Positions 16,920 through 35,541 of a DNA stretch of 64,000 bases are shown one piece after another. Both the position numbers and the translations under genes were made by a program. The stretch's first letter is position 1; the number at the start of each line of letters is the position of its first letter. The notes beneath the pieces were generated by a model that did no database searches, had not been told where the DNA came from, and saw only the letters and a program-made list of their open reading frames with translations. This DNA comes from a virus, in IMG/VR virus record IMGVR_UViG_3300020045_014031, positions 33,184 to 97,183 of that record; one strand, given 5' to 3'.

Positions 16920-19900
16920 TTAGTTTAAATCATCAACAAAGTGTTCAGACTGATACTTAAATTGAGAAGCTATATTTAAAACTGGAACAAGTTTACCTAA
17001 TTTATATAAATACTTATCAAAATCATAATCATCATCAGAAATAATTTTTACAGTTGCAGGAATTAAGGATTGTAAATTAGTAACAACACTATAAGCAGGA
17101 ATTAAATTTCCTGCTACAATCTCAGAAACAGTAGAAGGTGATATAACTGTTAAATCTCTTTCTATCAATAATGATTGATTAACTATAAAAGTTAATAAAG
17201 CATCATCTTCTTCATCATCAGCTAAGTATCTTAATATATAACCTAATGTCATAAATGACATGATTAAACTTAATTCAATTGTATTTTTTACAAGATTATT
17301 AGCATCTGTTTCTGTTATTTTTCTACCCTTATTATTTTTTAAATGTACATAATCTTTACTACCAAATATCCATGATTTATAAACTTGTAGAGTACCTACT
17401 AAAAAACCAGTAAAACCTAAATCAGAATAAGTTAAATATCTCCCTTTTATTGTTCTGTTTAATTTATAATCATAATGTTCTTTTTCTAATCTTGATGCAA
17501 ATGCTTCTGGCATCCATGATACTTTAAATTGACCTATTAATCTACCTACAAAAGATTTATTAATTAACTTAAATGAATGAGTATCGCCCATTACAATATC
17601 GTTAATTCTTTGAATTTTTAATATTATATTATTAATTACATCTTGTTCAATAATATTGTTTCCTTGTTTTTCTCCAATCCAATTCCCATCATTATCAAAT
17701 TTAGTATATAAATCTTCTTTTTCAAGAATAGAAATCATTAAAGCATATCTAATAGCTTGTTCTGATTTTTCCATTAATTTAAACCCGTAATTATCAAACC
17801 ATGTTTTCTCATCTAAACCCTGTAAATCTATAACATTGTCTTGAACTAATAATTTTTGAGCAAGTTTAAATACTTTAAAAGCTTCTTGTTTATCTTTTAC
17901 TATATTTGAAATCATCAACGATGTTACTTTACCCACATTTTTAGTAAATACAACAGAATCGTATTCTTGACCTGCATTAACAATACCATTAAAATAACCC
18001 CCAACAAAATTTCTACCTGCTGAAAAAGGATTTAACCCTAAAGATATAGTTCTTCTAACTTTAATTAAGTAATCAGTTATTTTACTAAAGTAAATACTAC
18101 TTCTATTTAACTCTCTAATTCTTTTTTGTATTAAATCATTAGTTTGTATAAACTCTTCTTTTGTTATTTTACCTTCTCGTCTTAATTGCCTTGATGTATC
18201 TAATTTCTCCAAGTAATAATTATATAACGTTTCAGCACTATCATAATTTTCACCTCTATACTTCTTTGTAAATTGATTTTTTATAGAATTTAATTTAGAA
18301 AAAACACCTTTACTTAATGAATCATTTATATTTTTCTGAACATTATTTACTAATTCAATTTCATCATTAAGTTCTTTTTCTGTAAAAGGAGAGTATATTT
18401 TTTTATTTTTTAATGCTTTTTTATTTTCATTTATAATTGCTAAAACACCTGATAAATCGGTTACATCATAATTAGAAAAAATATTTATCTCTGGTTTTGT
18501 CTTTTCTAAAAACATTACGTGATTAATAGTTTCTTCTAATAAAGTTAATTCATTAGACAAACCTTGACCTTTATCAAATTTCTTATCTGTTCCTTTACCT
18601 CTTTCTATAACAATATTTCCTTTATAGTCTTTCTGTATTGGTGTAGCATTCTTTAAAATACTTTGACCTAATAATACAGGTGCTTTAATTTGAGTATAGT
18701 AATAGTAATGATAAACAGAATCACCAAACAATTTTAATACAGGAATTAAATTAGTTGAAAAATCACCTTTATCTTTTGTAAAATTAGCTGAGTTTTTATG
18801 TTCTCCTATTTCTGGAATAAAATTAATAGGTATTTCTTTATAATCATTTATATTATCTGATGCTGTAAAATTAGGTAATGTTAATAAATCTTTTACTTGT
18901 TCTTGAAAAGATAAACCTTCTTTTACTAAATAACTATCTACAACAGGTATAAAATCTTCTGATATTCTGTTTCTTATATTAGCAGGTAACTTACTTTTTA
19001 AATTATCAATTACTTTAGATAAATTGTTATATACTTCTAATTTTTTATTATCTTTAAATATATTTTCAAAATCAATATTCCAAAATTGTTTTAATACAGG
19101 TAGTGATACAACATATTTTCTTGATGATAAATAATTAGGTTTATCTTTATTTAAGTTTTCAATATATAAAAAAGGATTGTTAATATTATTCCACTTATTA
19201 AAATCTTCTTCTGAACTAATTTCTTTTCTTGTCTTAACATCTTCAAAATACTTATTTAATAAACTTAACTGTTGATTTATTTTTTCTTGAATTACATATT
19301 TTACTAATTCTTTATTTTCAACACTAATCTTATCAGATAAACTTTTTATTTCTAATTCTAAATTATCTTTATTTATTTCATAACCTTCTGGTGTTTCTAT
19401 AAATAAATTTTTTAGATTTAAAACAGTACCTTGAACTTTATGGTTTAAAGATTGGTCTTTCCATACTTCTTTAGATGTAGCTAAATCATTAGCTCTATTT
19501 TTTCTCAATAATAAAACTCTTTCGTTTTCCATCCAAGAAGAAGTAAAGGCTTTAATTAATCTTATATCAGGTTCTTTTCCTTCTTTATTAACAGTTAAAA
19601 AATCTTTTGTATCAATTTTATTTTCTTTAACTATTTTCTCAATATCAATAAGAATATCTTGTAAACTATTAGATTCTCTTTTTTTAGATACATAAGCTAA
19701 ATCTAAAAATTTATTAATAGCTTGTACTGCAATATTAGCTGTTCTACCAGAACCAAGTAAAAAAGAACTTACAACATTTCTATCTGAAATATCTGTTGTT
19801 AAATTTTCTTTTTTAATTTCTTCACCTATATTACTTTCTTTAATAAAAGATTGTATTTCTATATCTTTAAATTTTTTACTTAAAGAATCAAATTTAGATT

Positions 19901-20564
19901 GTATTAGCAGTAAATCATCAGAATCTCTAATATCATCACCTACTAAATCTTTTATTCTTAACCAAAAATCCATTAAAAAAGAAAGTGATTTGATTTCATC
20001 AACACTTGTAGTTTTAAAATTATAATTACTTACAATATTATTAAAGTAATTATAATGTTTATTTGCTACAATCATTAAATTTACTAATGGATTATTAATA
20101 TTACCTAAAGAATTAATATCACTTGCTAAATCATCTAATCTAAGTTGTCTTGATTTATTAAATAAACTACTATCTTTCTCTTGAAATATGTTATTTCTAA
20201 TTATATTTAACTCAGATATTACTTTATTTAAAGGTTGTGTATTAACAATACTTGGAGCAAAAAAAGTATTACTATCTTCAATATCTTGAAGTATATTTAC
20301 AAACTCATTATAAGAAGGTTCTTCTTTTGATTTAAGCCTTTTAAAAAATAAGGAAGAATATAGTTTAGATTTTATTCTTATAGCTTCATTTTCAGAATTT
20401 GTACTTTGAAGTATCTCTTGATATAGTTTACTATCATTCCCTTGGAAATCTTTATCAATAAAGTTTCCGTTATTTCTTGCAAAAACAAGATGTGCAAGCT
20501 CTTCTCCAAGAACTTGCACTGTTTGTTTATAAAATTCGTTATTTTTATTTGGACAAATATTCAT
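16920..20564 (-). CDS. giant virion cargo (ejection) protein
   Basis: 1214 aa helical protein downstream of the vRNAP; N-terminal CPN motif; C-terminal GRLIGQFK.WMP...GRYLTY and hydrophobic segments typical of the third crAss cargo gene. Confidence 0.75.
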   Translation of the reverse strand: MNICPNKNNEFYKQTVQVLGEELAHLVFARNNGNFIDKDFQGNDSKLYQEILQSTNSENEAIRIKSKLYSSLFFKRLKSKEEPSYNEFVNILQDIEDSNTFFAPSIVNTQPLNKVISELNIIRNNIFQEKDSSLFNKSRQLRLDDLASDINSLGNINNPLVNLMIVANKHYNYFNNIVSNYNFKTTSVDEIKSLSFLMDFWLRIKDLVGDDIRDSDDLLLIQSKFDSLSKKFKDIEIQSFIKESNIGEEIKKENLTTDISDRNVVSSFLLGSGRTANIAVQAINKFLDLAYVSKKRESNSLQDILIDIEKIVKENKIDTKDFLTVNKEGKEPDIRLIKAFTSSWMENERVLLLRKNRANDLATSKEVWKDQSLNHKVQGTVLNLKNLFIETPEGYEINKDNLELEIKSLSDKISVENKELVKYVIQEKINQQLSLLNKYFEDVKTRKEISSEEDFNKWNNINNPFLYIENLNKDKPNYLSSRKYVVSLPVLKQFWNIDFENIFKDNKKLEVYNNLSKVIDNLKSKLPANIRNRISEDFIPVVDSYLVKEGLSFQEQVKDLLTLPNFTASDNINDYKEIPINFIPEIGEHKNSANFTKDKGDFSTNLIPVLKLFGDSVYHYYYYTQIKAPVLLGQSILKNATPIQKDYKGNIVIERGKGTDKKFDKGQGLSNELTLLEETINHVMFLEKTKPEINIFSNYDVTDLSGVLAIINENKKALKNKKIYSPFTEKELNDEIELVNNVQKNINDSLSKGVFSKLNSIKNQFTKKYRGENYDSAETLYNYYLEKLDTSRQLRREGKITKEEFIQTNDLIQKRIRELNRSSIYFSKITDYLIKVRRTISLGLNPFSAGRNFVGGYFNGIVNAGQEYDSVVFTKNVGKVTSLMISNIVKDKQEAFKVFKLAQKLLVQDNVIDLQGLDEKTWFDNYGFKLMEKSEQAIRYALMISILEKEDLYTKFDNDGNWIGEKQGNNIIEQDVINNIILKIQRINDIVMGDTHSFKLINKSFVGRLIGQFKVSWMPEAFASRLEKEHYDYKLNRTIKGRYLTYSDLGFTGFLVGTLQVYKSWIFGSKDYVHLKNNKGRKITETDANNLVKNTIELSLIMSFMTLGYILRYLADDEEDDALLTFIVNQSLLIERDLTVISPSTVSEIVAGNLIPAYSVVTNLQSLIPATVKIISDDDYDFDKYLYKLGKLVPVLNIASQFKYQSEHFVDDLN
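20334..20348 (+). repeat. degenerate dispersed motif copy
   Basis: AAGCCTTTTAAAAAA; reads FFKRL, a different register from the ILEGS copies. Confidence 0.55.
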
Positions 20565-20565
20565 T

Positions 20566-23500
20566 TTATTTACATTTTTTAACTAACTCTCTTGCTTCTT
20601 GCATATCTTCATTACTAAATATACTTTCTGATTGACTTAATTCTAAACTTAAATTATTTTCCTCAATATCTTGCATTAACTCTATTATGTTTTGAATAGA
20701 ACTTCTTAATATAGAGTTATTATTAATAGGAATTGATAAGTTATTAGCTATTTCATTTATTAACTTATTTAACCATTCAACAAATTTATCAAGTAAATTA
20801 ACTTCTGTATCTAAAAATTCTATATTATTAAGTTTTCTTTGAAAATTTACATCTGTTAAAACACCAGTAACAAATTCTCTAATATCACTCAAGTAATATA
20901 AAGATACTAATTCTTTTTTACTTAAAGTAGAATTTTGTTCTATTTCTATATATTTATTTTTTCTTTCGGTTAAATCTTTAATTTTATGAGCTTTACTATA
21001 TTCTTCAACAATACTTAACTCACTTTCTAATAAAGATTCTTTTGCTGAATTAACTAATAATTTTAGTTTTACATAAGGTAAAGAACCTTTATTTTGATTT
21101 AGATAATTTAAAGTAACATGATGTACTGATTCATGTAATAAATTTCTTAATAATTTAGAATTGTTATAAGCTAATTGTATTTCTGAACCATTGTAATAAC
21201 TCATTCCATTTTCATTTTCTACAATAGGTATATCAGCATTTTTATCATATATAAATTGATAAAGTATATTACTTAAATCTTTAAAAGGAGTGTCGTATTT
21301 TTCAATATTATGTAATGTACTTATTAAAGATTCTTTTCTTATACTATCAATTATAATTTTATTATTTTCTAAATTTTTTATTTGTTCTTGTTTTTCTTGT
21401 TTTTGACTGATTGAATCATTGCTTTCAAATAAAAGTAAATCTTCAATATGTAAACCTTTTTGTGTTTTATTAATAGGTATTAATGAGTTATTAAAATCAT
21501 TATTATAATTGTATTCATTAATATAATAATTACCTAAAGTATCTATTTGTAATAACTTAACATAAAAAGTTTTATCTTGGTTTTCTCTTGATTCAATTAC
21601 TTCATATAAAAATGTTTTATTTACTTTATATTCTTTACCTGTTTTTTCATTCTTAACACTAACTTTACCTTTTTTATACATAAACCTTGATAATTTATCA
21701 ACTTGTAACTCAATTATAGGTTTATCAAATTTTATATTTTTAGGTATTGGTTGACCTTCTTCTGGATTATGCTGATAATACTGTCTTACAAAATAATCAT
21801 CATTTAAAGAAGGTTCGTTAATTGTATTCTTTAAAAATTCACTAAAGTTATTAATAATAATAGAAGGAGGTATTAATTGAATAAATGAATTATAATTATT
21901 TATACCACCATTAACATAAGCGTATCTTACTAAATCACTTACAAAATTTCTTATTTCTAAATTTTCTGATTCTAACAAAATATAAAACTCATTATATATT
22001 ACTTGTGAATCAGCTTCTAAATCTAATGTTCTATAAACAATATAATCAGGCTCTCCTTTTTTATCTGCTATTTTTGTTTCTAACTTATTAAATAATGTGT
22101 AATTTTTATATTTTAATTTTAAATGTTGTAATCTTAAAGCTAAACTTTCATTATCACCTAATGTAAACATTAATCTTCTTCTTTCTTTACTATTATTTTC
22201 CCAAATATTATTAGCTGAATAAACATAAGACTGATAATTTGTAAGAATATCTCTAAGTTCTTTAGGGTTTAATTCTTTATCTTTTATTGATGTTATTTGA
22301 TTAATTATATTATTTAACTTGCTGTAATTAAACATTTCAGAAAAACTATTTAAAACATCTAATGTTAAATCAACTGTCTTACCTAATTCTGTTTGACCTA
22401 TTGATTCTTCGTAAAATAATTCTCTAAAGTTATTCACATAAGGAAATCCTTTTGAAGTATCAATAACAGATAAAGAGTTAATTTTTTGTTCTTTTGCAAT
22501 ACCTTCTAATATATTTGTACCAAAACCTTTAGTATCAACATTAGTAGCAATCATCATTTGAAATAAATTAGTACCTATATAATCAAGAACTAAAAAAGAT
22601 TTTAATAAATTATAGTTATTTTCTGGTTCTTTTAATTCTTTAATATTACCATTATTATCTCTAACAATACCTAAGTCACTGTCTGTTAAATATACATTTT
22701 CTTTTAGTACATCATAAATACTACTCGGTATTTCATATATTTTTTTTGAAACATTAGATTCTGAACCAAAACGTAAATCAAAATCCTCTAATGTTTTTTC
22801 ATAAGCTAATTGTTTAACATCTTTTCCTTTTGCATCATTAAAAGTATCTCTGTATGATTTTAAGTTATTAACATAACTTTTTACAATATCGTTATTAATC
22901 AATTGAGCAGAATATTCATTACTTACAGCATTATTATCACTTTTACTGCTATCTTTTAATTGTAATAATACAACATAAGCATTAGCTGTAATATCATTAA
23001 GATTAATTTTATCTGCTGTTTGATTTTTTGCATGGTCTACTGCTTCTGATTGTGGTATTACTATATTATCAGATGTTGTTCTTCTTTGTCCATTAAAATA
23101 ACTATAACCAATACCAGAAAAAGTATTTAGATTTGTATTATTTATGTTTATCCTAACATTTCCTAAATTCATATTTTTAGTTCTTTGTAATAAAGTACTA
23201 AACGTTAAATTTAATGAAAAAGTACCAACTAATCTTTTAACACCAATATTACTTACATAACTTTCTAATTGATTAACAGGATTAAACAAATCTTTTATTT
23301 GTTTATTTTTGTTTGATTTATTTCTCATTGATACTACATCTTGTAAATCTGACATATCAAGAGGTTGCATAATTTTATCAAACATTCTTGGTGCAATTAA
23401 TATATTATAAAGAGTATCAAAATAATCATTTTTTAACTCTTCAATTCCTTCTTCATATTCTTCGTTTATCTCTCCAAATTTATTAACATTTAGATTAGTA

Positions 23501-26500
23501 TCAAGATAATTTATAGGTAATTCATTTAACTGTTGTTTATAGTTTTCTAACAATTCCCTGTCTTCTTTTAGTAGCTTTACAACTTTAGAAAAAGTATTTT
23601 TCTTATTGACATCTTCTATATATGAAACAGTAAAAGCATTATAAACTTGTTTTTTAAACTCACTATCTATATTTTTAATTTTATTATATATAGTTCTTGT
23701 TTCACCTTTATATTTTGATTTAACTGATTCTGCTCCTATACCTGTTGTATATGTTAAATCTCTAAGGTTAGTTAAATCATCAATATTAAAAGATTCAATA
23801 ATTTTTTCTAAATTTTCAGAATCCAAATCACTTTCAATAAAATAAGAAATAACTTTTTCTTTTAAATTCTTTAAGTATTTGTCAGAAGTAATTGCTTGAT
23901 AATATTTTTCTATTTGTTCATTTACTTTTTTAAACTCTTCTTCTGATAATTTATTATCTTGAAGTTCTTTTTCTTGATTTTTTATTTTTTGTTTTAATAA
24001 TATATAATCATTTTTTAATTGTAAATCAGGATATTTTTTTACTGGTTTATACTTTTTTTTGTAAACATAAAGTTTATCAATATCAAAGTCACTACCCATT
24101 TGTTTTGTAATCTCAGCAGGTACATATATTATATCACCTCCTATATTAGGTAAAAACCCTACAATTTCCATAGGTAACTGTGAACTATGTGATTGGTTAG
24201 GTATCCTTGCTCCTACAAACTTTAATAGTTCTTTATTTATATCAACACTTCCTTCATTTATAAACTGATTTATATCAATTCTTTGTTCTTTATTAAAGAA
24301 GTTAAAAGGAACTAATACTTGTGCAGGAAGTATTTTTGCTGTAAAATTATCTGAGCCTTCTAAAATAATAGAAGAATTAACTAACTGTTGGATTTGCTCA
24401 TTATTTATTTTAAAAGGCTCATTTGTTTTAGATAAATCTAACTGTTCTTGTGTTAAATATATCTCTATTCCAAATTGGTCATATAACTCAGATATTACAG
24501 GTCTTAATGGTCTTAATCTTTTATCATCCCAACCTTTAACTTTTTTAACATCATTAGGTACTTCACCTGTTTTATCCATTTTACCAATACCTAAACTTGT
24601 AATTTGAACAAATGACTTACCGTTAATTTTAACTTGAATAGCTTTTCTAACAGCAGAAGCTATTTTTGATTGTATCTGATTAGAACTTCTATTAAATAAT
24701 AAAGGAATTAACATTTCATTATTATCATCTAATTGCAACTCTAATTTTTGATTAGTTGTTAAATCAGAAGTTGTTCTAAATATATAATCTCTTAATTTTG
24801 TTTTATCAACAAAATCTTCATAAATACCTAACTCATCTTTTAATTCATCAAAAGATATATCTAACATTCTTTTACGAATATCTTCTTTAATTAAGCACAT
24901 TTCCTCACCTGTTTTCTTTTCTCCTTTATATTCAAATACAGGTTCTTTAATTGAAGTTAATGTATCAAGAATTAATTTATTTAATTGAGTTACAAAAGTA
25001 ATTTTTTCTTTTGTTTCATCATAAGGTATTTCTTGCTGTATTAAAAAAGCATCAGCATTCATTACTCTCATTGATTTAACTAATGAATCACCTTCATTTT
25101 TATAAATCCAATTACCGTTAATATCAAAAGGTTCAAAAAATACTACTGGATTACCTGATTTACCTGCTGTATCTAAACTAACTTGGTCAATACCGTTTTC
25201 TTCTATTAGTTTTCTTAAATTATCTAATTCAGTACCAGAAGTTATATTAGGTATTAAAGGAATTAAAGATGATTTTACATAATGAATATAACTATATACC
25301 CTATTAACACCTAATGGAGTAAACTTTCTATCTGTTTCCACAGGTTTCATAGCATACATATAAGATAGTTCTTCTGCATTTAAAAATTCACCATCTTTCT
25401 TTTTCATTATTTGACTATAAACTCTTGTAGGTATTCTACCGTAATCAAATAGTATATTAGCTATTCTTTTAACAGAACAAAATTGAGAAGCATCCGAAGG
25501 GTCAATTTGTCCTTCTAACTCTCCTTTCTTGTTTTGCTTTAATCCGTAGTAATTATTTAAAAATAAATCTTTATACTCTTCTGTAAATGTATTAGGTACT
25601 TTAATTGTTATTGCTTTATAAGTTAAACTTTGATAACTACCTGCAATCCCAGGGGCTATATCTTTAGCTAATCTTTTAGTATATTCATCATAAGTTCTAT
25701 TTATAGTATCTACTATTGTATCACCTTCTTTACCTTTATAAAATAAAGCAGGGTCACCAGATGTAAACATAGCTAACGATATATTAAAAATATGTTTATT
25801 AATAGCATACTGAGATATACTACTAATATCTTCTTTTGATATTAATTCAATAGGTAATTTATTTTTTTGAATAGAATCAAAAACATTATTAATTATAATA
25901 TCACTTCTATAACTAATTACTTTATTTATTACATCAAGATACTTTTCTATTATGTTATCGTTCTCATCAAGAATTTTATCATTAATTGTATCTTTGTCTA
26001 TCCATAATAAATCTATTTCTTCTTTAGAAAATAAATTACTACCGTCTATTGACTTAATATTACTTAAAATCTCATAATTAAAATCAGGTAACAAGTAAAA
26101 TATTCCTGCTCCCTTTTTAACTTGTGCTGTTACATCTAATTTATCTTTATTAACTACTCTAATATATTCGGCTTTAAATATATAAGCATATTCATTACCC
26201 ATTTGACTAAAAGGTATTTTAGGTATTCCCGAATGAAAAGGAGTTGTTTTCTTGTCAGATTTAGTTAAATCAAAATAATTAGCTGTACTTTTACCTTCAT
26301 TTCTAAAGTTTTCAATTTCAGTAACTAACTGTTCTCTAAAACTCATATTATCTCTTGTAATACCTTTTTTAGATTTTTCATTCTTAATAGCTTCAAATAA
26401 ACCTAACTTATACTCTTCTAAAACATTGTTATTGTTAATTACATTTCTAAAAAAGAAAGAGTTACTACTAAATAAATCTTTACTTAATGTATCCCTATAG

Positions 26501-28218
26501 TTTTCACCATTAATAATAGGGTTTTGAATAGCTCTTAATATCTCTCTAAATTGAAAAGTAGGTAAAATATAATCATATACTTTCTTACCTTCTACTGTTG
26601 TATGAGTAGATGTAATAATATCTGAATATTTACCTTGTAACTCACCTAAAAATCTTGCTACTTTAGTATCAGTATATAATGGATTACTAATAGTTAAAGT
26701 TGCTTCAACTTCTTCATCTTCATTTTCATATATACTTTCTCCTCTTAAAATACTTACAATATCTGAAAATAAACCAAATGGTTCAAAATCAGTTGTAGAA
26801 CCTTTTTTAAGTTTTCTCGTATATTGAAATTGAGAAATAATATCTTTATTGTATCTTGATTTCTTAAAGAAAAAACTATTATTAAATAAATCTTCTCTTG
26901 TTTGTTCTGATATTGTAAAACCTAAACCATCAATAATTTCATTAGCTAAATCAATATACTCTTGTTTAACAGCTTTTTCTTTATTAGCTTTTAATATTCT
27001 ATTATATATATTATTTACTTTTTCTTTGTTTACAAAATAATTACCGTCATTATCAAAACTAATAAAATTATCTTTTCTATCTAAAGTATTTAGTTTTTGC
27101 TCTTCTTTCCAAATAGAAAGAATTTTATTAAGATAAGAATTTCTATTTCCTTCAATAGTTACAACTTTATAAGGAGTATTTAAACCTTCTTTTTCAGCTT
27201 TATAATCTTCTGTTTTATTAAATAAGGTAACGTATTGTTTAGCGTTTACTTTCTTTAATGCTGATACAAATTCATTTTTAATTCTATCTTCTGAATTAAT
27301 TAATCTTTCACCTAATTTATAAATAGTAGGTTGATTTTTTTTATTAAAGTCAGATTGTAATATAGTTAATAATTCATCAAAAGATAAATCTAATTTATTA
27401 CTTGTGATAGTTACAACTTTTTGATAAAGCTCATCGTAGTTATATAACTTACTTAATCCAATAGAACTTATTTGAGGAACAATATTTCCATTAACATTAT
27501 CATATATAGGAAGAGTTGAAAGAAACAATTTAATTCTTTTTGACATTGTTTCTTTAGGGTCACGTTCTTCACTTGCTTTATGTTCTCCTCTTACATCTGC
27601 TTCCCCTGTTTCATTGTCTTCTAACAATGATTCATTAATTCTATCAACATCAATATTTAATTTTGAATATTTATCTTTAACAAAACTTTCAATCTGTTTT
27701 CTTGAATTAATTATGTTCTCATAATCTTTTATAAAAGGTATAAAAGAATAAAATTTACTTTCTGTATTATCTTCTAAAAAAGCTTTTAAAGTATTTTTAT
27801 GTATAATACTTATATTCTTAAATACAATATCAAATACATCTTCTACTTTTAATTCTTTATTATCTTCTTTTGATTTTTTAATTAGTTCTTCAAAAGACAT
27901 TTTAAAAACAACTTCAATAGAATCTTTTTGTTTTACAATATCAAAAAATTCACCTGTATAGTTACCATTTGAATCTTGTATTTCAATATTATACAATCTT
28001 CTTTCTTCATTGTTATTTGATGTAACAATAGATTTATTAATTACTTGCTCTATTGTATATCTTTTTCTTTTAAATTGTTTTATCTTTTCACTAACAGAAA
28101 TAGCTCCTTCATTAGAAGGAGCTATATTTTCTGCAAACCATACTTGTTGTGCATTTTCACCATGTTCAGCAACTAATTGTCTCCAATAATCACTGTTATA
28201 ATTTGGACATATTTTCAT
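20566..28218 (-). CDS. virion-packaged DNA-dependent RNA polymerase (crAss-like) with C-terminal zincin-like domain
   Basis: 2550 aa; GARIPNQSHSS and MGSDFDIDKLY catalytic DxDxD motif (about 24076-24090); LLHESVHHVT HExxH near the C-terminus. Confidence 0.93.
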   Translation of the reverse strand: MKICPNYNSDYWRQLVAEHGENAQQVWFAENIAPSNEGAISVSEKIKQFKRKRYTIEQVINKSIVTSNNNEERRLYNIEIQDSNGNYTGEFFDIVKQKDSIEVVFKMSFEELIKKSKEDNKELKVEDVFDIVFKNISIIHKNTLKAFLEDNTESKFYSFIPFIKDYENIINSRKQIESFVKDKYSKLNIDVDRINESLLEDNETGEADVRGEHKASEERDPKETMSKRIKLFLSTLPIYDNVNGNIVPQISSIGLSKLYNYDELYQKVVTITSNKLDLSFDELLTILQSDFNKKNQPTIYKLGERLINSEDRIKNEFVSALKKVNAKQYVTLFNKTEDYKAEKEGLNTPYKVVTIEGNRNSYLNKILSIWKEEQKLNTLDRKDNFISFDNDGNYFVNKEKVNNIYNRILKANKEKAVKQEYIDLANEIIDGLGFTISEQTREDLFNNSFFFKKSRYNKDIISQFQYTRKLKKGSTTDFEPFGLFSDIVSILRGESIYENEDEEVEATLTISNPLYTDTKVARFLGELQGKYSDIITSTHTTVEGKKVYDYILPTFQFREILRAIQNPIINGENYRDTLSKDLFSSNSFFFRNVINNNNVLEEYKLGLFEAIKNEKSKKGITRDNMSFREQLVTEIENFRNEGKSTANYFDLTKSDKKTTPFHSGIPKIPFSQMGNEYAYIFKAEYIRVVNKDKLDVTAQVKKGAGIFYLLPDFNYEILSNIKSIDGSNLFSKEEIDLLWIDKDTINDKILDENDNIIEKYLDVINKVISYRSDIIINNVFDSIQKNKLPIELISKEDISSISQYAINKHIFNISLAMFTSGDPALFYKGKEGDTIVDTINRTYDEYTKRLAKDIAPGIAGSYQSLTYKAITIKVPNTFTEEYKDLFLNNYYGLKQNKKGELEGQIDPSDASQFCSVKRIANILFDYGRIPTRVYSQIMKKKDGEFLNAEELSYMYAMKPVETDRKFTPLGVNRVYSYIHYVKSSLIPLIPNITSGTELDNLRKLIEENGIDQVSLDTAGKSGNPVVFFEPFDINGNWIYKNEGDSLVKSMRVMNADAFLIQQEIPYDETKEKITFVTQLNKLILDTLTSIKEPVFEYKGEKKTGEEMCLIKEDIRKRMLDISFDELKDELGIYEDFVDKTKLRDYIFRTTSDLTTNQKLELQLDDNNEMLIPLLFNRSSNQIQSKIASAVRKAIQVKINGKSFVQITSLGIGKMDKTGEVPNDVKKVKGWDDKRLRPLRPVISELYDQFGIEIYLTQEQLDLSKTNEPFKINNEQIQQLVNSSIILEGSDNFTAKILPAQVLVPFNFFNKEQRIDINQFINEGSVDINKELLKFVGARIPNQSHSSQLPMEIVGFLPNIGGDIIYVPAEITKQMGSDFDIDKLYVYKKKYKPVKKYPDLQLKNDYILLKQKIKNQEKELQDNKLSEEEFKKVNEQIEKYYQAITSDKYLKNLKEKVISYFIESDLDSENLEKIIESFNIDDLTNLRDLTYTTGIGAESVKSKYKGETRTIYNKIKNIDSEFKKQVYNAFTVSYIEDVNKKNTFSKVVKLLKEDRELLENYKQQLNELPINYLDTNLNVNKFGEINEEYEEGIEELKNDYFDTLYNILIAPRMFDKIMQPLDMSDLQDVVSMRNKSNKNKQIKDLFNPVNQLESYVSNIGVKRLVGTFSLNLTFSTLLQRTKNMNLGNVRININNTNLNTFSGIGYSYFNGQRRTTSDNIVIPQSEAVDHAKNQTADKINLNDITANAYVVLLQLKDSSKSDNNAVSNEYSAQLINNDIVKSYVNNLKSYRDTFNDAKGKDVKQLAYEKTLEDFDLRFGSESNVSKKIYEIPSSIYDVLKENVYLTDSDLGIVRDNNGNIKELKEPENNYNLLKSFLVLDYIGTNLFQMMIATNVDTKGFGTNILEGIAKEQKINSLSVIDTSKGFPYVNNFRELFYEESIGQTELGKTVDLTLDVLNSFSEMFNYSKLNNIINQITSIKDKELNPKELRDILTNYQSYVYSANNIWENNSKERRRLMFTLGDNESLALRLQHLKLKYKNYTLFNKLETKIADKKGEPDYIVYRTLDLEADSQVIYNEFYILLESENLEIRNFVSDLVRYAYVNGGINNYNSFIQLIPPSIIINNFSEFLKNTINEPSLNDDYFVRQYYQHNPEEGQPIPKNIKFDKPIIELQVDKLSRFMYKKGKVSVKNEKTGKEYKVNKTFLYEVIESRENQDKTFYVKLLQIDTLGNYYINEYNYNNDFNNSLIPINKTQKGLHIEDLLLFESNDSISQKQEKQEQIKNLENNKIIIDSIRKESLISTLHNIEKYDTPFKDLSNILYQFIYDKNADIPIVENENGMSYYNGSEIQLAYNNSKLLRNLLHESVHHVTLNYLNQNKGSLPYVKLKLLVNSAKESLLESELSIVEEYSKAHKIKDLTERKNKYIEIEQNSTLSKKELVSLYYLSDIREFVTGVLTDVNFQRKLNNIEFLDTEVNLLDKFVEWLNKLINEIANNLSIPINNNSILRSSIQNIIELMQDIEENNLSLELSQSESIFSNEDMQEARELVKKCK
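24352..24376 (+). repeat. dispersed motif copy
   Basis: TGAGCCTTCTAAAATAATAGAAGAA, 25 bp identical to intergenic 55532-55556; reads SSIILEGS in the RNAP. Confidence 0.95.
24406..24426 (-). repeat. dispersed motif copy (C>T variant)
   Basis: ACAAATGAGCCTTTTAAAATA on the minus strand; reads TNEPFKI; forms an inverted pair with 24352-24376. Confidence 0.85.
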
Positions 28219-31200
28219 TATTCTGTACAGATTTTATTAAATAATTTATTTGCATCTTCCATAGATTGTACTTTAGATGCTTCTTCTAAATATTTGTTTT
28301 TAGAATTTTCTGATAATTCATCATTCAATATAACATTTATATTTATAAATTCATAAACAAAGTTCTTATACTTTTCAACAGAATTTTTAAATGATTCTAA
28401 AAAAGAAGAATTGTTTTTGTAATCATCATTAATTGAAAATACAGAATCTAAAACATCTTCGTCTTCTTCATTAGATTTCTCACCTATATTTTTAGAAGGC
28501 TCATTTGTTTGTTCAATAACTTTATAATTATAATCAAAATTAACCACAAAATCTTTAGTATAAACCAATTCTTTTTGTCCTTTGTTATTTATTATAAAAT
28601 TATCTTTATTTACATCAAAATTAGTTTCTAAATCATTCTTAATATAATCATAATAAGTAAGGTTATTTCCTCCTTTAATTACAATTTCGTTATTTTCTAA
28701 TACAGGATATTTAAAACCTTTTGTTTGACCATTATTTAAAAAATCATTATCAAGAGTAAATAGTTTATTCAATAATTCTGTTTCTAAATTATCTATAAAT
28801 TTTTTAAACCCTTGTTTATCTAAATTATAAGAACTATTACTATTAGCAGGTTTTAAAGCAAATAAATTAACTCCTTTTTTACCGTTAGCATCTGACATAT
28901 AAATTAAAGAAGGTAATTTATTTTCTCTTCTTGTTTTTATATCGTTAATATAATTTACTGTTGTAAAATACTGTTGAATAAATTTATTAAAATTAGTTAA
29001 TATATCATAGTTTAATACTAAATCATTAGATATTTTATTTAATTTATCTAATGATATTTTATCTCCTTCAACAGTACCTTTATAGTATAAAGTAAATAAT
29101 TCTTTTAAAGTATTTATTTTATCTTTACTAAGTGTTTTAATTGTTAAAGGATATACTTTAGTTAAACCATTAATATCAGGATAACTTAAAACAGCAAGTA
29201 GTTTTTTATTTATTGTACCATTTATTTCACTTTCAATTGAAGGGTATAAAGTACCATTAACCAATGAATGAACTTTAACTCTACTATCATTATTATCTAT
29301 AATACCTTCTAAAGATTGTCTTGTTTTTTGAGTAATTGCTCTACCACCTGATTTTCTTTTAAGATTGGTTTTAATAACTACATTAGAATTAGTAGAAAAC
29401 AGTTCTCTTATTTTTTTAATTTTTTGTTCGTTATAATTTCTATAATTAATAGAAATTATAACACCTTCTTGTGTTACAATACTTTCTTTATCTAATTTTA
29501 AATAACTTATTTGATTTAATACATCAAATAATTCATTTAGTATTTTTTGATTTTTACCTTCTGTATTATAATCTTTAATGTTGTTTTTACTATCTTTAAT
29601 GTACGTAGTATTAATAAATTCAATAGTTGGTAAATAACCAATTTTTTTGTCTGAGCCTTCTAAAAATATAGCTATCGGAAGCTCATCATTAATTCCTACT
29701 TGATAGTTTTTATCAATTCTTAATTCTAATGAAGTACCCTTTTTTAACTTAGCTGTTTCTAAAGCATCTGCTGTTAAAGAATTATCATCTCTTATTTGAC
29801 CATATTGAAATCTAAACATATCTAAAGTAAAAGGTTCTTCATACATTTCTTCTTCTTTTACTTCATTGTTAAAATTATCAATAATTTCTTCTGTTGTTTG
29901 TTCTTGTGTTTCTTCAATAAAAGAGGGTTCTTCATTAATAGTTTTAGAAATAACAAGTTCCTCAACTTTATCTTTAACTTCTTCTTGATTTTGTTTAGCT
30001 AAAGTTATAGCATAACTTTCTTCAATTTTATTTTTAAATTCTGTAAAAGACTTTCTTAGTTCTTTTTTTATTTTTTTACTATCAAACATTAAATCTAATA
30101 CTTCATCTGAAAAAGAAAATAATCTTAATTGTAATTTATATTTTTCTTCACCTGATAACTCTTTTATATTTTTATGAATATAGTCTAATAAAGTACTTGA
30201 TAGATATTCTAAATTGTAATCACCAGAATCAAGAGAAGACTTAATAAAATTAAATACAAATGTTAAAATTCTATCATTTTTGTTTTCTTTAGAACCAAAT
30301 GTACTTTTTATCTTATTTTCTAATTCTTGTATTTTTTTAGAAATAACTTTTTTCTTTTGTTCTCCTTTAGTAATTATTTCTTTTTTCCTTAATGTTTGTT
30401 TTTTAACAGGTTTTTTAACAATAGGTTGTTCTATTAATTCTTTTAATAAATCATCATATTTAGCATTAATTTTTATAACAACAGGTTTTTTATTAAATTC
30501 ATCAACTGTTTCATTTCCAGTAATTTCACTATCTAATTCTTCTTGTCTTCTTTTTTCTATATCAGCTTTTTTATCTTCTAAACTATTATTATTTTTAGTT
30601 TGTTCTGAAACAACAACAGGTTTTTCTGATTCTTTGCTCTCTTCTGCTTCTTTCTCTTCTTTATTAATTTTACGTATTTCTTCAAGTAACTTATTATTAA
30701 AATCATTATCACTTTCTTTACCTTCTCCTTGTGGAATTTCAGACTCTTCTTGACCAAATGTTCTTAATACTTTAGGTTCTAAATCATCAGGAACTTCTAT
30801 TTTTTCAACTTCTTTTTTAGTTTTATCAACTACTTCTTGTTTTTCTAAAGGAGTTTCTTTTTCTTTAACTATTTCTTCTTTAGCTTGTTGCTTTTCTTCA
30901 TTAACTTTTTTAAGATAATCTTGTAATTCATTTATTCTATTTTTTCTAAGTTTTATTAAAGTAGTAATATCAGATAAATTATTAAAATAATTTACAAGAC
31001 TATTGTAAAAACTATCTTTTTTATTTGTTTGTACATTAATTTCTTCAAGTTGTTTTACTTCTTCCTCAATTCTTTTAATTTCATTAACAATTTGCTCTTC
31101 TTGTTCTTTGTTTATTTTTTGTAATTTATCTATAAAGTAACTATCCTCATTTGCTTTTCGAGCTTCATCATAAGAATAAATATTGTGCTGAGCTTCTAAT

Positions 31201-33698
31201 TGTTGTTTTAAATCTTGTATTCTTTGAGAATGATTATTAATAAATTTATTTCTACCTTTACTTGAAGTAACATCTTTAATTTTATTCTTAATACTTTCAG
31301 TACCTTTTGTAAATTCTTTTAAAGATTCACTAAAAGAAATTATGTTTTTAAAATCAGGATATTTATCTGACCATTTATTAATATAATCTTTAATATCTTT
31401 ACTTCCCGATTTTTCAAAAGAGGGTGAAATTTTAATATAGTTTTCTACTTCTTCTTCTTTTTGTTTTATTAATTCATTATTCTTTTCTACTTTAATGTAT
31501 AAATTATCTAATATATCTTTATCAGAATATACTTTTTTATCTAAGGTATCTACAAAATCTTTTAATATATTAATATCAGGATTTTTACTATACTCTTTTA
31601 AAGCATTTGTAATACTATCTGTTTCTTTTATTAATGAAGTTAAAGAAGTATTTAAAATCATATTTTCAATATTACCATAATCATCAATTGATGAAAATAA
31701 TTGAAAATTAGCTTTTTCAGATAATAAATCATTTTCTAAATCTTGCTGTATATTCTGTCTTCCAATTACATCAGACTGTAATTTTGTTATATACTCAGCA
31801 AAGTTTACATTTACTTCTTCTGGTAAAACATACTTTTCTTTATTTTTTTTGTGTAACTCATCAATTTGCTTTATTTGATTAATTGCTTTAGTAGCTCTTA
31901 ATTTATAATCATTATCGTTTTTATCTTTAGCTAATCCTAATTGCACAGCAGGTGTAACACCTGTTAAATCAGCAACTTTTTGTTGTGTTTCTTTAAGTAC
32001 TTTATCAAGTTCTGTTATTTGATTTTTCTGTTCATCAGATAACTCACCTTTTTCATCTACATTTGATTTAATACTATTAATTTGATTTTGTAACTGTTCT
32101 GCTTGTTTTGCAGGTTCTTCACTTAAATCAGTAGAATTATCTTGTTGTAGTATTTTTTGATAAGAAGAAATTAAATTTTCTCCCATACCTTTATATATAG
32201 AATCAAGATTGTTAATAGAATATAATTTTCTATAAAGTTCTTTTTTTTCAACAGGATTATCTGTACTTGCTATTTTATTTTGTATATCATCAATATAAGA
32301 TAAATCAGAAAATAAACTATCTTTTAATGTGTTATAGTATTGTTGGTTATCGTAAATGTCTCTTGCTCTTGGTGAAACTCTTTGTGTTTCATAAACAGGA
32401 TTTCCTTTTTTATCTAACAATACATTACCTTCACTATCTTTTTTAACAATTAAACTACCATCATCTGATAGTTTATTTATCTTCTGAGAAGGTATTACAT
32501 TATCTAATAACATCGTTTGAGACATACCTCCAATAGCACCTAAAGCAAAATTTAAAACACCTTCATCATTTACAACAGAGTTTAAATTATCATAAGCTGA
32601 TTGAAATTGTTCTAAATAAGATAAATCTTTACTTTCTACACCTTCTTTTCTACCTGTATTTTCAGCAAGTTGAGTAACTACTTCTTCAATACCTTCTTGT
32701 GACATCTCAGAAAGTAATTTACCATAATTTTGTTTTGTAATTTCATTAAGATATTGAGGTGATTGTTTGATTATTCTTTCTTTATATTTCTGAAAAGGTT
32801 CATAAACTAATTCTCCTAAACTATTTTTTTCAACTAATCTTTTACCTGCTCCTTTTAAAAAATACTTTTCTGCTTCATTAGCTGTTCTATTAAATACAGA
32901 ACCTATACCAGTTAAATTTAAAGCTGAACCTATTGTAGTGTTTAACTGTACAGTAGTACTTGCTCCTTCACTTGCATATTTTTTAGCTAATTTATCAGCT
33001 TCATCAATTGATAATCCTTTTTTAGTTAGTTTATCAAATTGATTTTTATAAATATCTCTATATACAGTAGCACCTGACATAGCTCCTTCTAAATAAGAAA
33101 GTTCTACTGCTGTCATTGCTTGTAGTGAACCTTTAATAACTTTATTAGCTGTATTACCTAATTTTAATAAGCTACCTAATTTACTTACTGCCCCACTTGC
33201 TAATAAACCTCCTGATTCAGCAATTAAACCAAATTGAATAGCACTTTCAACTAATGATTGACCAGAATTTAACCAAAAAGCACTGTCGGTTAAATCAATT
33301 ATTTTATCTGATTTTCTTTTTACTTCACCAAAAGGGTTTCTTACACTATCTGCCCAATCAGTTATAGCATTAGAATAATCACCTTTACTATCTTCAAATA
33401 AAGTTCCTAAATATCCAATACCCCCAACAGTACCTGTTACAATATTAGATATTGTATTACCTGATGTAATTGCTAATTGTTTACCGAAAGATTGACTATT
33501 AGCTTCTTCTTCTTGTGAAACTTTATAAGGGTCTTGTGAACCTACTTTAATACCTTGTTCTAAAGTGTTTCTATATTCATTAGATGAAAATGGAGTTTCA
33601 CCATAAGGTTGTTTTAGTTTATCTAAAACATTAACAGAAGACTTTGGTTTTGGTTTACCATTGTCTTCTGTTGAATTTAATGCTTCAAGTACGTTCAT
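28218..33698 (-). CDS. giant virion cargo (ejection) protein
   Basis: 1826 aa; Gly/Ala-rich membrane-like N-terminal part with EGIEEVVTQ motif, long coiled coils, directly upstream of the vRNAP. Confidence 0.75.
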   Translation of the reverse strand: MNVLEALNSTEDNGKPKPKSSVNVLDKLKQPYGETPFSSNEYRNTLEQGIKVGSQDPYKVSQEEEANSQSFGKQLAITSGNTISNIVTGTVGGIGYLGTLFEDSKGDYSNAITDWADSVRNPFGEVKRKSDKIIDLTDSAFWLNSGQSLVESAIQFGLIAESGGLLASGAVSKLGSLLKLGNTANKVIKGSLQAMTAVELSYLEGAMSGATVYRDIYKNQFDKLTKKGLSIDEADKLAKKYASEGASTTVQLNTTIGSALNLTGIGSVFNRTANEAEKYFLKGAGKRLVEKNSLGELVYEPFQKYKERIIKQSPQYLNEITKQNYGKLLSEMSQEGIEEVVTQLAENTGRKEGVESKDLSYLEQFQSAYDNLNSVVNDEGVLNFALGAIGGMSQTMLLDNVIPSQKINKLSDDGSLIVKKDSEGNVLLDKKGNPVYETQRVSPRARDIYDNQQYYNTLKDSLFSDLSYIDDIQNKIASTDNPVEKKELYRKLYSINNLDSIYKGMGENLISSYQKILQQDNSTDLSEEPAKQAEQLQNQINSIKSNVDEKGELSDEQKNQITELDKVLKETQQKVADLTGVTPAVQLGLAKDKNDNDYKLRATKAINQIKQIDELHKKNKEKYVLPEEVNVNFAEYITKLQSDVIGRQNIQQDLENDLLSEKANFQLFSSIDDYGNIENMILNTSLTSLIKETDSITNALKEYSKNPDINILKDFVDTLDKKVYSDKDILDNLYIKVEKNNELIKQKEEEVENYIKISPSFEKSGSKDIKDYINKWSDKYPDFKNIISFSESLKEFTKGTESIKNKIKDVTSSKGRNKFINNHSQRIQDLKQQLEAQHNIYSYDEARKANEDSYFIDKLQKINKEQEEQIVNEIKRIEEEVKQLEEINVQTNKKDSFYNSLVNYFNNLSDITTLIKLRKNRINELQDYLKKVNEEKQQAKEEIVKEKETPLEKQEVVDKTKKEVEKIEVPDDLEPKVLRTFGQEESEIPQGEGKESDNDFNNKLLEEIRKINKEEKEAEESKESEKPVVVSEQTKNNNSLEDKKADIEKRRQEELDSEITGNETVDEFNKKPVVIKINAKYDDLLKELIEQPIVKKPVKKQTLRKKEIITKGEQKKKVISKKIQELENKIKSTFGSKENKNDRILTFVFNFIKSSLDSGDYNLEYLSSTLLDYIHKNIKELSGEEKYKLQLRLFSFSDEVLDLMFDSKKIKKELRKSFTEFKNKIEESYAITLAKQNQEEVKDKVEELVISKTINEEPSFIEETQEQTTEEIIDNFNNEVKEEEMYEEPFTLDMFRFQYGQIRDDNSLTADALETAKLKKGTSLELRIDKNYQVGINDELPIAIFLEGSDKKIGYLPTIEFINTTYIKDSKNNIKDYNTEGKNQKILNELFDVLNQISYLKLDKESIVTQEGVIISINYRNYNEQKIKKIRELFSTNSNVVIKTNLKRKSGGRAITQKTRQSLEGIIDNNDSRVKVHSLVNGTLYPSIESEINGTINKKLLAVLSYPDINGLTKVYPLTIKTLSKDKINTLKELFTLYYKGTVEGDKISLDKLNKISNDLVLNYDILTNFNKFIQQYFTTVNYINDIKTRRENKLPSLIYMSDANGKKGVNLFALKPANSNSSYNLDKQGFKKFIDNLETELLNKLFTLDNDFLNNGQTKGFKYPVLENNEIVIKGGNNLTYYDYIKNDLETNFDVNKDNFIINNKGQKELVYTKDFVVNFDYNYKVIEQTNEPSKNIGEKSNEEDEDVLDSVFSINDDYKNNSSFLESFKNSVEKYKNFVYEFININVILNDELSENSKNKYLEEASKVQSMEDANKLFNKICTE
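28484..28503 (-). repeat. dispersed motif copy
   Basis: TGAGCCTTCTAAAAATATAG on the minus strand; reads NEPSKNI. Confidence 0.95.
29652..29671 (+). repeat. dispersed motif copy
   Basis: TGAGCCTTCTAAAAATATAG; perfect 20-bp inverted repeat of 28484-28503; reads IFLEGS. Confidence 0.95.
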
Positions 33699-35473
33699 TT
33701 TTTATATAAATTTGATAATTTACCTAACAAATCTTCATAGCTAACTGCTACATCATTTCCATTAGGTGTTTTTATTGTATATTCTCCTTTTAAACCTTCA
33801 CTTGGTAAATTCTTTTTAACTAATATTTCTGGAAAACCTTCTACTTTAATCTTTTTATAGTTACCAAACATATTATCTAATCCTTGTGAAGCTATATATG
33901 CTTTAGCTATCCAAGATTCAATTTTTCCTGATTTAACTAAATTGTTTACAACTTCTATTTGATTAGGAACTTTAATTCTAAAATTAAAATCAGATTTACT
34001 TGAATCTTCTGAATTTTGTTCTTTAGATGAACCACTACTTCTTCCTTTATAGTAAACACCATCGGTAGTTAAGTTAATACCTCCAAACTCAACATTTTTC
34101 ATTTTAGTAAGTTGTTCTTTACTTAAAGGTTTTCCTGTACTTGCATCTTCTGGGTGATATTGAGCTTTCATTTTATCATCTGATAAAACATTTGCAGATG
34201 ATAAGTTACCTAATGATTGTTGTAAATTTCTATCTAATGACTTATAATCAGATTCTTTGTCAAAACCAAATGTTTTAAATAATTGTGTACTTGACATAGC
34301 ATCTTGTTGTACAGCTAAGTTAGCTTTTTCAATTAAAGATTTTTTACCATCGTTTAAGATACGCAATGTTTTTCCTACACCCATATTTAATACTTCATAA
34401 TCCTTACCGTATTTTAAACCAAATTGTTTATCAATTCTATCTCTATATTGAACAATATTTTTAGCTCTTTCAGTATCACCTTTTTGTTCTGCTTCATTTG
34501 CTAATGAATTTATATGACCTATATTATCAGCTTCAAAAGATTTTTTATTGTATGGAGTAGGAAGTAGTAAGTCACCTACAACAGCATTTTCTTTTTCAAT
34601 TTGTTTTCTTTCTTTCTGTCCTTTTAATAAAGATTTAGTAACATCTTCATAGTCAATAGAATTATTATTGTATTGACTTATTGATAAACCATTAACAATA
34701 GAAGAAACAAATTCTTTATGTTTTTGTTCAGCGTATTCTTTACCTCCTAATTCAGCTTGCATTTTAAGCCAATTTTGATAAGGTAAATCCATTATTCTAT
34801 TTTCAATTTTCTTTTGTATTTCTGGTGTAACTTGTTTTCTTTTATAGTTATTCTCTAAAGTAGCTCCTTCAAAAGGATAAGGTTTTCTTTCGTTTGTTTC
34901 TGGATTAATATATTCCTTACCTTCTTGTACAGGAATTAAATTATCTAATTCTCCCATTATAGCATGAGCATCAGGGTCTTTTACAATACTAACAGGAATA
35001 AATTTGTTTTTTACAGCTCCTGTAATAGGGTCATATTGTAATCCTCCTGATTTTTGTCTTGCATAATTAAGATACATTTGTTGTTCTTGTTCTGACTTAC
35101 CTGATTTAGCTAATTCTTCTTTAAACTTTTGTTTTCTTGCTGTATTTTCAGCAAATTGTGAATACATAGATTTAAACTTACGAGCTTGATTAATTAACTT
35201 AGTATCTAAATTACCTACATAATCTTGTTCACTTAATTTAGATAAATCATTTCTTAAATTACCTGTTGCTGAATTAAATAAATTTCTATCTTCATCATCT
35301 AAATTAGCTGATGCCATATCTAAAGCATCTTCTAATTCTCCTTTTGAATTTAATACTTTATCTTGTTTTCCTTGATAATGACTATATAATTGACCTAATT
35401 CTTGAGTTGGTAATCCTGCATAAGTACTTATATGTTTGCTTGTTACAGGTACTATTTTATTTATGAAATCCAT
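33695..35473 (-). CDS. virion cargo protein
   Basis: 592 aa, N-terminal HISTYAGLPTQEL motif, helical and Cys-free; position matches the crAss cargo cluster. Confidence 0.65.
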   Translation of the reverse strand: MDFINKIVPVTSKHISTYAGLPTQELGQLYSHYQGKQDKVLNSKGELEDALDMASANLDDEDRNLFNSATGNLRNDLSKLSEQDYVGNLDTKLINQARKFKSMYSQFAENTARKQKFKEELAKSGKSEQEQQMYLNYARQKSGGLQYDPITGAVKNKFIPVSIVKDPDAHAIMGELDNLIPVQEGKEYINPETNERKPYPFEGATLENNYKRKQVTPEIQKKIENRIMDLPYQNWLKMQAELGGKEYAEQKHKEFVSSIVNGLSISQYNNNSIDYEDVTKSLLKGQKERKQIEKENAVVGDLLLPTPYNKKSFEADNIGHINSLANEAEQKGDTERAKNIVQYRDRIDKQFGLKYGKDYEVLNMGVGKTLRILNDGKKSLIEKANLAVQQDAMSSTQLFKTFGFDKESDYKSLDRNLQQSLGNLSSANVLSDDKMKAQYHPEDASTGKPLSKEQLTKMKNVEFGGINLTTDGVYYKGRSSGSSKEQNSEDSSKSDFNFRIKVPNQIEVVNNLVKSGKIESWIAKAYIASQGLDNMFGNYKKIKVEGFPEILVKKNLPSEGLKGEYTIKTPNGNDVAVSYEDLLGKLSNLYKK

Positions 35474-35495
35474 ATTATTACTTTTTCTTTTAAAT

Positions 35496-35528: not shown

Positions 35529-35541
35529 AATATAAACCAAT

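Follow-up and report, generated by a model that had tools for sequence, protein, structure and literature searches.

Paired terminal cysteines at polyprotein breaks suggest a disulfide-linked chain of giant proteins in crAss-like phages

We analysed a stretch of 64,000 nucleotides of the IMG/VR virus record IMGVR_UViG_3300020045_014031 (positions 33,184 to 97,183 of that record; hereafter the window, whose own numbering is used throughout), which encodes on its minus strand three giant proteins that we name U, R and D. Sequence comparison indicates that these are three pieces of what in other crAss-like phages is made as one or two polyproteins. At each of the two breaks, a cysteine lies a few residues from both facing termini, and these cysteines very probably bridge the breaks functionally, whatever the chemistry. 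We further think it reasonably likely that tail-to-head docking and a disulfide formed at every break join the three proteins into a linear U-R-D thread, whose links are reduced, and thereby opened, in the host. The genes and the codons concerned are the following.

28218..33698, minus strand: U, predicted upstream giant virion protein, first in the proposed chain (1826 amino acids, by translation)
20566..28218, minus strand: R, predicted virion RNA polymerase (RNAP), middle of the chain (2550 amino acids; DFDID motif, matches to phi14:2 gp66 and 6VR4)
16920..20564, minus strand: D, predicted downstream giant virion protein, last in the chain (1214 amino acids, by translation)
28227..28229, minus strand: codon of U Cys1824 (..KIC-TE-stop, by translation), C-side of junction 1
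28207..28209, minus strand: codon of R Cys4 (MKIC-PN, by translation), N-side of junction 1
20572..20574, minus strand: codon of R Cys2549 (..KKC-K-stop, by translation), C-side of junction 2
20553..20555, minus strand: codon of D Cys4 (MNIC-PN, by translation), N-side of junction 2

The sole cysteine of U is residue 1824 of 1826 (..NKICTE before the stop), the sole cysteine of D is residue 4 of 1214 (MNICPN), and R has cysteines at residues 4 (MKICPN), 914, 1108 and 2549 of 2550 (..KKCK before the stop). This agrees in every count with a first reading made from the letters alone (the sequence-only reading), which had seen a single C-terminal cysteine in the 1826-residue protein, an RNAP that starts MKICPN and ends KKCK with two other cysteines, and a single cysteine, in MNICPN, in the 1214-residue protein. 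Cysteine frequencies are 0.05-0.16% in U, R and D against a background of 0.7% in the open reading frames (ORFs) of the window, and the whole block 16139-38127 has 6 cysteines in 7,292 amino acids (0.08%, against 0.7% over all 58 window ORFs, block included). If the observed numbers of cysteines were placed at random, the probability of having one at most 4 residues from all four facing termini would be ~2e-10.

If a link from C-terminus to N-terminus replaces the peptide bond of a polyprotein, then facing cysteines are expected at every break and none at the fusion points or the outer ends. The architectures of the window and of nine reference phages are given below, where junction 1 lies between U and R, junction 2 lies between R and D, and cysteine offsets are written C-side/N-side.

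Window: U, R and D separate; junction 1, -3/4; junction 2, -2/4
phi14:2 (g067, g066, g065): U, R and D separate; junction 1, -1/3; junction 2, -2/3
crAss001 (gp47, gp50, gp49): U, R and D separate; junction 1, -3/5; junction 2, -9/5
DAC15 (61, 63, 62): U, R and D separate; junction 1, -3/5; junction 2, -1/4
IAS virus: U, R and D separate; junction 1, -1/5; junction 2, -3/5
p-crAssphage (gp45, gp44): U separate, R and D fused; junction 1, -2/3; junction 2, fused
crAss002 (gp32, gp33): U separate, R and D fused; junction 1, -2/3 from the Met33 start (35 by the annotated start); junction 2, fused
FpV4 (gp32, gp33): U and R fused, D separate; junction 1, fused; junction 2, -2/3
cr50_1 (gp059, gp060): U and R fused, D separate; junction 1, fused; junction 2, -2/3
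cr1_1 (gp076, gp077): U and R fused, D separate; junction 1, fused; junction 2, -4/5

Across the nine reference phages, each partner-facing terminus has a cysteine 1-9 residues from its end and the outer termini have none. The phi14:2 triplet has just four cysteines in 5,398 amino acids, all of them at facing termini; in crAss001, gp47 ends ..RCNS, gp50 runs from MSKRC.. to ..DKICGANTLYEL and gp49 begins MAKKC... The U gene of crAss001, DAC15 and IAS virus is on the opposite strand and does not adjoin R, with the cysteine pattern unchanged, and the rule therefore belongs to the proteins and not to the adjacency of the genes. The suggestion of the sequence-only reading that the cysteines follow gene order needs one correction: the pattern tracks the sequence in which U, R and D succeed one another in the polyprotein, rather than the layout of the genes.

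The fusions that we examined are free of cysteine around the point of fusion. The U+R fusions of FpV4 (gp32), cr50_1 (gp059) and cr1_1 (gp076) have no N-terminal cysteine and retain the C-terminal one, and their D partners begin MAC, MQC and MSIIC, respectively. The metagenomic U+R fusions P0010, P0012, P0013 and P0015, and probably P0011 and P0016, also lack the N-terminal and have the C-terminal cysteine; since P0010, P0013, P0016 and FpV4 gp32 have no other cysteine, there is none at their fused junction. The R+D fusions show the reverse: the N-terminal cysteine is retained and the C-terminal one is absent in p-crAssphage gp44, in P0009, which has no cysteine near the junction, and in 35 of 41 representatives. 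Finally, four U+R+D polyproteins of 5,280-6,067 amino acids have 0, 0, 0 and 1 cysteines. When the protein sets are pooled, cysteine is found at 93 of 107 junction-type N-termini vs 0 of 33 chain-start N-termini (Fisher 3e-21) and at 35 of 37 junction-type C-termini vs 0 of 103 chain-end C-termini (Fisher 6e-31), values that overstate independence because the compared sequences are related, although the direction is uniform. This contrast between split and fused forms is the strongest argument for cysteines pairing across the breaks.

Each terminal cysteine could instead bond elsewhere, either to its counterpart in another copy of the protein (U-U, D-D or R-R) or to portal, inner capsid or small cargo proteins. 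Such bonds have a parallel in crAss001 gp57, which forms Cys-Cys homodimers (Bayfield et al. 2023, PMC10172136), and p-crAssphage gp47, crAss002 gp30 and FpV4 gp30 have a single terminal cysteine whose partner is not obvious. We nevertheless regard this as improbable, given that it leaves unexplained why both cysteines of a junction are missing from fused forms while the pair of the other junction stays, and why the outer ends are free of cysteine (0/33 and 0/103).

The pattern is conserved in metagenomic relatives of all three proteins. The homologs of the RNAP with 88-40% identity all retain ..ICPNxNxDYW and a cysteine at -1 or -2, and C4 and C2549 of R are invariant columns in an alignment of six RNAP sequences down to 40% identity (A1, mean column identity 56%). 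A cysteine is also found at -1 to -4 in all 15 further RNAP-containing homologs that end in the C-terminus of R. The U homologs (89-26% identity) have exactly one cysteine in their 1,260-2,485 amino acids, 1-6 residues from the C-terminal end, in 19 of 22 cases and an N-terminal one in 0 of 22, and the family has 22 cysteines in 42,689 amino acids; C1824 is an invariant column in an alignment of 7 sequences (A2, mean column identity 45%). Every junction cysteine is thus an invariant column among close relatives (40-89% identity). A phmmer search with D against 1.84 billion representatives gave 324 matches, the best 150 of which we classified (pairwise identity <50%). Among these best 150, stand-alone D proteins have a cysteine in the first 5 residues in 48 of 56 cases (median total of 1 cysteine), the 35 of 41 R+D fusions mentioned above have theirs in the first 7 residues (median of 1 cysteine in ~4,000 amino acids), and a C-terminal cysteine is found in 0 of 150. 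Conservation of the terminal cysteines across Crassvirales, which the sequence-only reading had named as a check, is upheld in several families, down to ~20-26% identity. We also noted three proteins of 2,200-2,600 amino acids (P0081, P0115 and P0151) that have DFDxD only ~200-370 residues from their start and yet begin MKC.. or MPLINC..; these may be truncated genes, or RNAPs with an additional break inside, again marked by a terminal cysteine.

With these data, it is extremely improbable that the pattern arose by chance or from base composition, or that it is spurious, produced at gene boundaries by gene calling or by translational coupling. In favour of such an origin, one can count that the U/R and R/D genes abut and that a few other window ORFs have a cysteine near an end. 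Against it stand the random-placement probability for the window alone and the persistence of the pattern, both in genomes whose U gene lies far from R on the opposite strand and in a set of over 100 representatives that share less than 50% identity.

The cysteines are part of short terminal modules, three of which can be delimited in the window.

28126..28218, minus strand: N-terminal head module of R, residues 1-31 (ICPNxNxDYW..V..HGE..A...F, from alignment)
20472..20564, minus strand: N-terminal head module of D, residues 1-31, paralogous to the head of R (42% identity with residues 1-31 of R)
28221..28271, minus strand: C-terminal tail module of U, ~residues 1810-1826 (..SMEDANKLFNKICTE, from sequence)

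The N-terminal module that the sequence-only reading had seen in both R and D is real: residues 1-31 are ~42% identical (MKICPNYNSDYWRQLVAEHGE.. in R and MNICPNKNNEFYKQTVQVLGE.. in D) and share ICPN-x4-aromatic, a helix and GE. Residues 3-112 of D are homologous to the N-termini of cr50_1 gp060 and of cr1_1 gp077 (E 2e-7), the latter of which begins with the same ICPN head as in the window (MSIICPNLKNKE..). The tail of U looks like an amphipathic helix ending at the cysteine, and resembles that of R (..NEDMQEARELVKKCK) in character only. In P0006, an RNAP 49% identical to R, an insertion of ~200 amino acids directly follows the 30-residue ICPN head, and the head is therefore a separable module on a linker. 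The AlphaFold2 (AF2) model of D (predicted local distance difference test, pLDDT, of 79) has residues 1-9 as coil, including Cys4, followed by a helical hairpin at residues 10-30; the position of Cys4 in a coil ahead of the hairpin would fit an accessible thiol, without being proof of one. A complex prediction of U residues 1727-1826 with R residues 1-60, made with alignments of our own, scored 0.21, under the mark of 0.32 that a verdict in either direction would need. We considered and rejected three other roles for these termini: a lipobox or signal peptide at MKIC/MNIC, as a hydrophobic signal segment is absent; split inteins, as the terminal modules are far too short; and CaaX-type prenylation, as the C-terminal spacing is variable and the system bacterial.

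The comparative data require pairing and not a particular chemistry, and the facing termini might pair without a disulfide, by sharing a metal ion or by placing thiols within a non-covalent docking interface. Hosts such as Bacteroides are anaerobes, and the sequence around the head cysteine is conserved (ICPN.., C..APNGE), both of which would suit this explanation. Yet cysteine is the sole residue conserved over all types of heads and tails, its distance to the end varies (1-9), and the flanking motifs differ from lineage to lineage (tails of the types ..KIC.., ..NPFxKC and ..SFxC., heads of the types ICPN.., C..APNGE and MSC..); variable spacing and differing flanks are more easily reconciled with a covalent tether that is flexible than with a metal site of defined geometry. 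A metal would also be poorly held by just two thiols, D has Leu in place of the conserved His19 of the R head, and the cyanophage A4, which we compare below, has a disulfide. We thus think pairing by other means unlikely.

A further feature recurs around the junctions, a zincin-like HExxH motif.

21121..21135, minus strand: HESVH (HExxH, zincin-like) of R, residues 2362-2366, ~190 amino acids before the C-terminal cysteine

H2362, E2363 and H2366 of R are invariant in alignment A1, and this stretch of R has a homologous counterpart in the C-terminal portion of FpV4 gp32 (E 5e-8). The motif varies in position among the three proteins, mostly at most ~250 residues from a junction: it lies in the C-terminal part of R in the window and in FpV4, in the N-terminal part of D in phi14:2 (residue 245), and in the C-terminal part of U in crAss001 (2157 of 2341), p-crAssphage (1743 of 1957) and crAss002 (1814 of 2020). 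This suggests either that the break points are at non-homologous positions or that a zincin module was shuffled around the junctions. Such a motif could point to processing or ligation, in which the cysteines, instead of forming a reversible tether, would serve to cut the pieces apart or to ligate them by thioester or acyl-shift chemistry. Drobysheva et al. proposed that fused polyproteins are cleaved (10.1101/2020.03.07.982082), the HExxH motif lies within ~250 residues of a junction in many lineages, and crAss001 and FpV4 have genes annotated as E1-like ThiF. We consider it very unlikely, however, because cleavage would be needed only by the fused forms, which lack the cysteines, and not by the split forms, which have them. 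In addition, the N-side cysteine is at positions 2-7, not at 1, and has no common cleavage motif, and the C-side cysteine is followed by 0-8 variable residues.

A disulfide thread would account for these observations as follows. U, R and D would be kept nearly free of cysteine, like other ejected phage proteins, with one retained near each facing terminus (the C-terminal end of U and the N-terminal end of R, then the C-terminal end of R and the N-terminal end of D). The terminal modules would dock head-to-tail, a tail helix ending in cysteine against an ICPN head followed by a helical hairpin, and the paired cysteines would become joined by an intermolecular disulfide, in the virion once assembled or once released. 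The product would be a single thread of ~5,590 residues, U-S-S-R-S-S-D, with the polarity of a continuous polypeptide, and it would be topologically linear and unbranched because the links are at the extreme ends and there is next to no other cysteine. Partly unfolded, this thread would move through the narrow channel of portal and tail, and its links would open in the reducing cytoplasm, freeing the RNAP. The daisy chain of the sequence-only reading is thus well supported by comparison, through the conservation of the facing cysteines, their absence near the examined fusion points and at outer ends, and the precedent of A4. From these we infer docking, the disulfide in crassviruses and threading, as well as the control of stoichiometry, the order of ejection and the release by reduction that the sequence-only reading had attached to the chain. 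More tentatively, delivery and transcription may be coupled by redox state, a possibility that we find rather doubtful: the ~5,600-residue thread would be drawn down the tail with its N-to-C order fixed, and host thiol reductases would cut it only inside the cell, freeing a packaged, self-inhibited RNAP so that reduction switches on early transcription.

Several points weigh against the thread, besides the relatedness that inflates the Fisher values. Docking of these termini and a disulfide between them have been directly seen in no crassvirus. Assembly takes place in a reducing cytoplasm, many hosts of crassviruses being anaerobes, and oxidation would therefore have to wait for lysis or happen within the capsid. 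In the lineage of the window, R and D have paralogous heads, and U and R have similar tails, which leaves the specificity of the partners unexplained, as R could join R. Lastly, cysteine is absent from 14 of the 107 junction-type N-termini, several of which look like miscalled starts or truncated genes.

The identity of the phage and of R can be established from the surrounding genes and from sequence searches.

24076..24090, minus strand: DFDID catalytic motif of R, residues 1377-1381
33695..38127, minus strand: two proteins upstream of U (592 and 861 amino acids; 0 cysteines in 1453 amino acids)
16139..16888, minus strand: cysteine-free protein downstream of D (249 amino acids, by translation)

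R (P0002) carries the DFDID motif within a giant single-chain protein, is 26% identical to phi14:2 gp66 over residues 905-1491, the catalytic core (tblastn, E 7e-17), and matches PDB 6VR4_A (phmmer, E 1e-19). On this basis, we identify it as a Crassvirales-type virion RNAP, of the two-barrel kind of phi14:2 gp66, and predict that it is packaged in the virion of the window phage. The same module has matches above the curated cut-offs to the Pfam families Crass_capsid (47085-48692), CrAss_Ring_1 (42353-43120) and CrAss_Ring_2 (43689-44321). Capsid and tail ring proteins 1 and 2 being in the same module, the window belongs to a divergent crAss-like phage, the G+C content of which is ~23-27%. The start of R overlaps the stop of U in a TAATG at 28218 (28216-28220), and a single nucleotide at 20565 separates the stop of R from the start of D (20564-20568), which fits a coupled, roughly equimolar synthesis of the three proteins. 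Searches placed U, R and D in no family of PHROGs or Pfam, U had no tblastn match in the phage collection, the viral-contig search for related loci with D and with the RNAP alignment gave no relatives, and neither the U profile nor D had a meaningful match among the PDB sequences. The search of sequencing runs gave small shares only (at most 0.11 of words), in aquatic and freshwater metagenomes.

The 592- and 861-residue proteins are likely small cargo or ejection proteins that stand outside the cysteine chain in the window, since they adjoin a muzzle-like gene. A lone cysteine near an end is found in smaller cargo-like proteins of other phages, namely p-crAssphage gp47 (Cys856 of 857), crAss002 gp30 (Cys550 of 557, ..FRCGGKKKIA) and FpV4 gp30 (Cys5 of 598); their partner is not evident, and the window counterparts (861 and 592 amino acids) are free of cysteine. 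p-crAssphage gp48, with three cysteines, ends ..YRCGGHRR, similar to the end of crAss002 gp30. Two further ORFs of the window are rich in cysteine, neither with a Pfam match: a protein of 333 amino acids in the structural module (44408-45409, minus strand) has cysteines at 111, 119, 122 and 125 (CX7CX2CX2C), and an ORF of 114 amino acids (5739-6083, minus strand) has 8 (7%), the highest content in the window, and sits where the plus-strand gene block switches to the minus-strand block. In p-crAssphage, gp39 and gp37 are annotated as a thioredoxin and a truncated thioredoxin in the early/middle region (L003:30978-32245), and are possible reductants for the proposed links; no window ORF among those scanned has a thioredoxin-like Pfam match.

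How the >600 kDa cargo of crassviruses, which includes the polymerase that starts the infection, is packed and delivered is a question that remains after the structure of crAss001. A rule of one cysteine pair per polyprotein break, conserved and readable from sequence, would explain why these three modules are separate in some phages and fused in others, why they are free of cysteine, and how their order and joint delivery could be ensured. It also provides a practical check on gene starts and splits in the annotation of crassviruses. The annotated start of crAss002 gp33 (L004:17088-17190) puts the first cysteine at 35, and a start at Met33 gives MSCTPSNPK.., the same MSC start as in p-crAssphage gp44, so that translation probably begins 32 codons after the annotated start. 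The RNAP of IAS virus (L006:15812-24794) is annotated as the overlapping gp055 and gp056, with ambiguous bases (X) near the break and gp055 beginning MSLYC, and this split looks like an artefact of the sequence and not a real break.

Among the closest known systems are the orthologous triplets of phi14:2 (gp67-gp66-gp65) and crAss001 (gp47-gp50-gp49), which have the same pattern of terminal cysteines. Proteins of the U, R and D types are present in virions and fused as a polyprotein in some phages (Drobysheva et al., 10.1101/2020.03.07.982082); the text of that preprint contains neither the word cysteine nor the word disulfide. All three proteins of phi14:2 and of crAss001 are reported from virions, and for both phages it is known from the literature that the RNAP is packaged and reaches the host. 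The window differs in its R, which is ~26% identical over the catalytic core, and in the distinct ICPN head found at both of its junctions. Virions of crAss001 have several inter-subunit disulfides, in the tail and in gp57, and their cargo, left unresolved in the structure, was argued to unfold partly for passage through the tail (Bayfield et al. 2023, PMC10172136). Disulfides are mentioned there for tail and portal-vertex proteins only and not for the cargo, and our literature search found no description of the terminal-cysteine rule in crassviruses.

Suppression of cysteine in ejection proteins is known from Schitoviridae, in N4 gp50 and DEV gp71-gp73, where the rationale is the passage of the periplasm (PMC11445570). 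The window shares with these phages a giant virion RNAP and companions with cysteine far below the level of the proteome, but N4-like proteins have essentially none, whereas those of the window keep one per facing terminus. A looser analogy may be drawn with the docking domains of modular polyketide and non-ribosomal peptide synthases, a cytoplasmic assembly line held together non-covalently. There, too, short C- and N-terminal modules order separate giant proteins head-to-tail, and fusions replace the modules elsewhere.

The precedent for the link itself is the cryo-electron microscopy structure of the pre-ejectosome of cyanophage A4, where the C-terminal helix of gp27 inserts in a cleft of gp26 and Cys1715 forms a disulfide with Cys5 (PNAS 2025, PMC12002296). 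BLASTP of A4 gp26 and gp27 against the window proteins gave E > 0.2, a hidden Markov model of the D family (jackhmmer, 295 sequences) had no match in the A4 proteins, and the comparison of the AF2 model of D with the PDB recovered generic helical bundles only and not A4 gp26 (Foldseek E >= 0.05, VIA-align Z <= 10). A4 belongs to Saffermanviridae and, unlike the window, has no RNAP between the two proteins, hence one link instead of two. The likeness lies in the arrangement: gp27 and gp26 are consecutive giant all-alpha ejection proteins of 1717 and 1114 amino acids, sizes that mirror those of U and D, with a lone cysteine 3 residues from the C-terminal end of gp27 (..DNPCQF before the stop) and another at position 5 of gp26 (MSKHC). 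In the record of Anabaena phage A-4L, the 1717- and 1114-residue proteins have no cysteines other than this disulfide pair, and the window shows the same signature at both of its junctions (U 1824/1826 with R 4, and R 2549/2550 with D 4).

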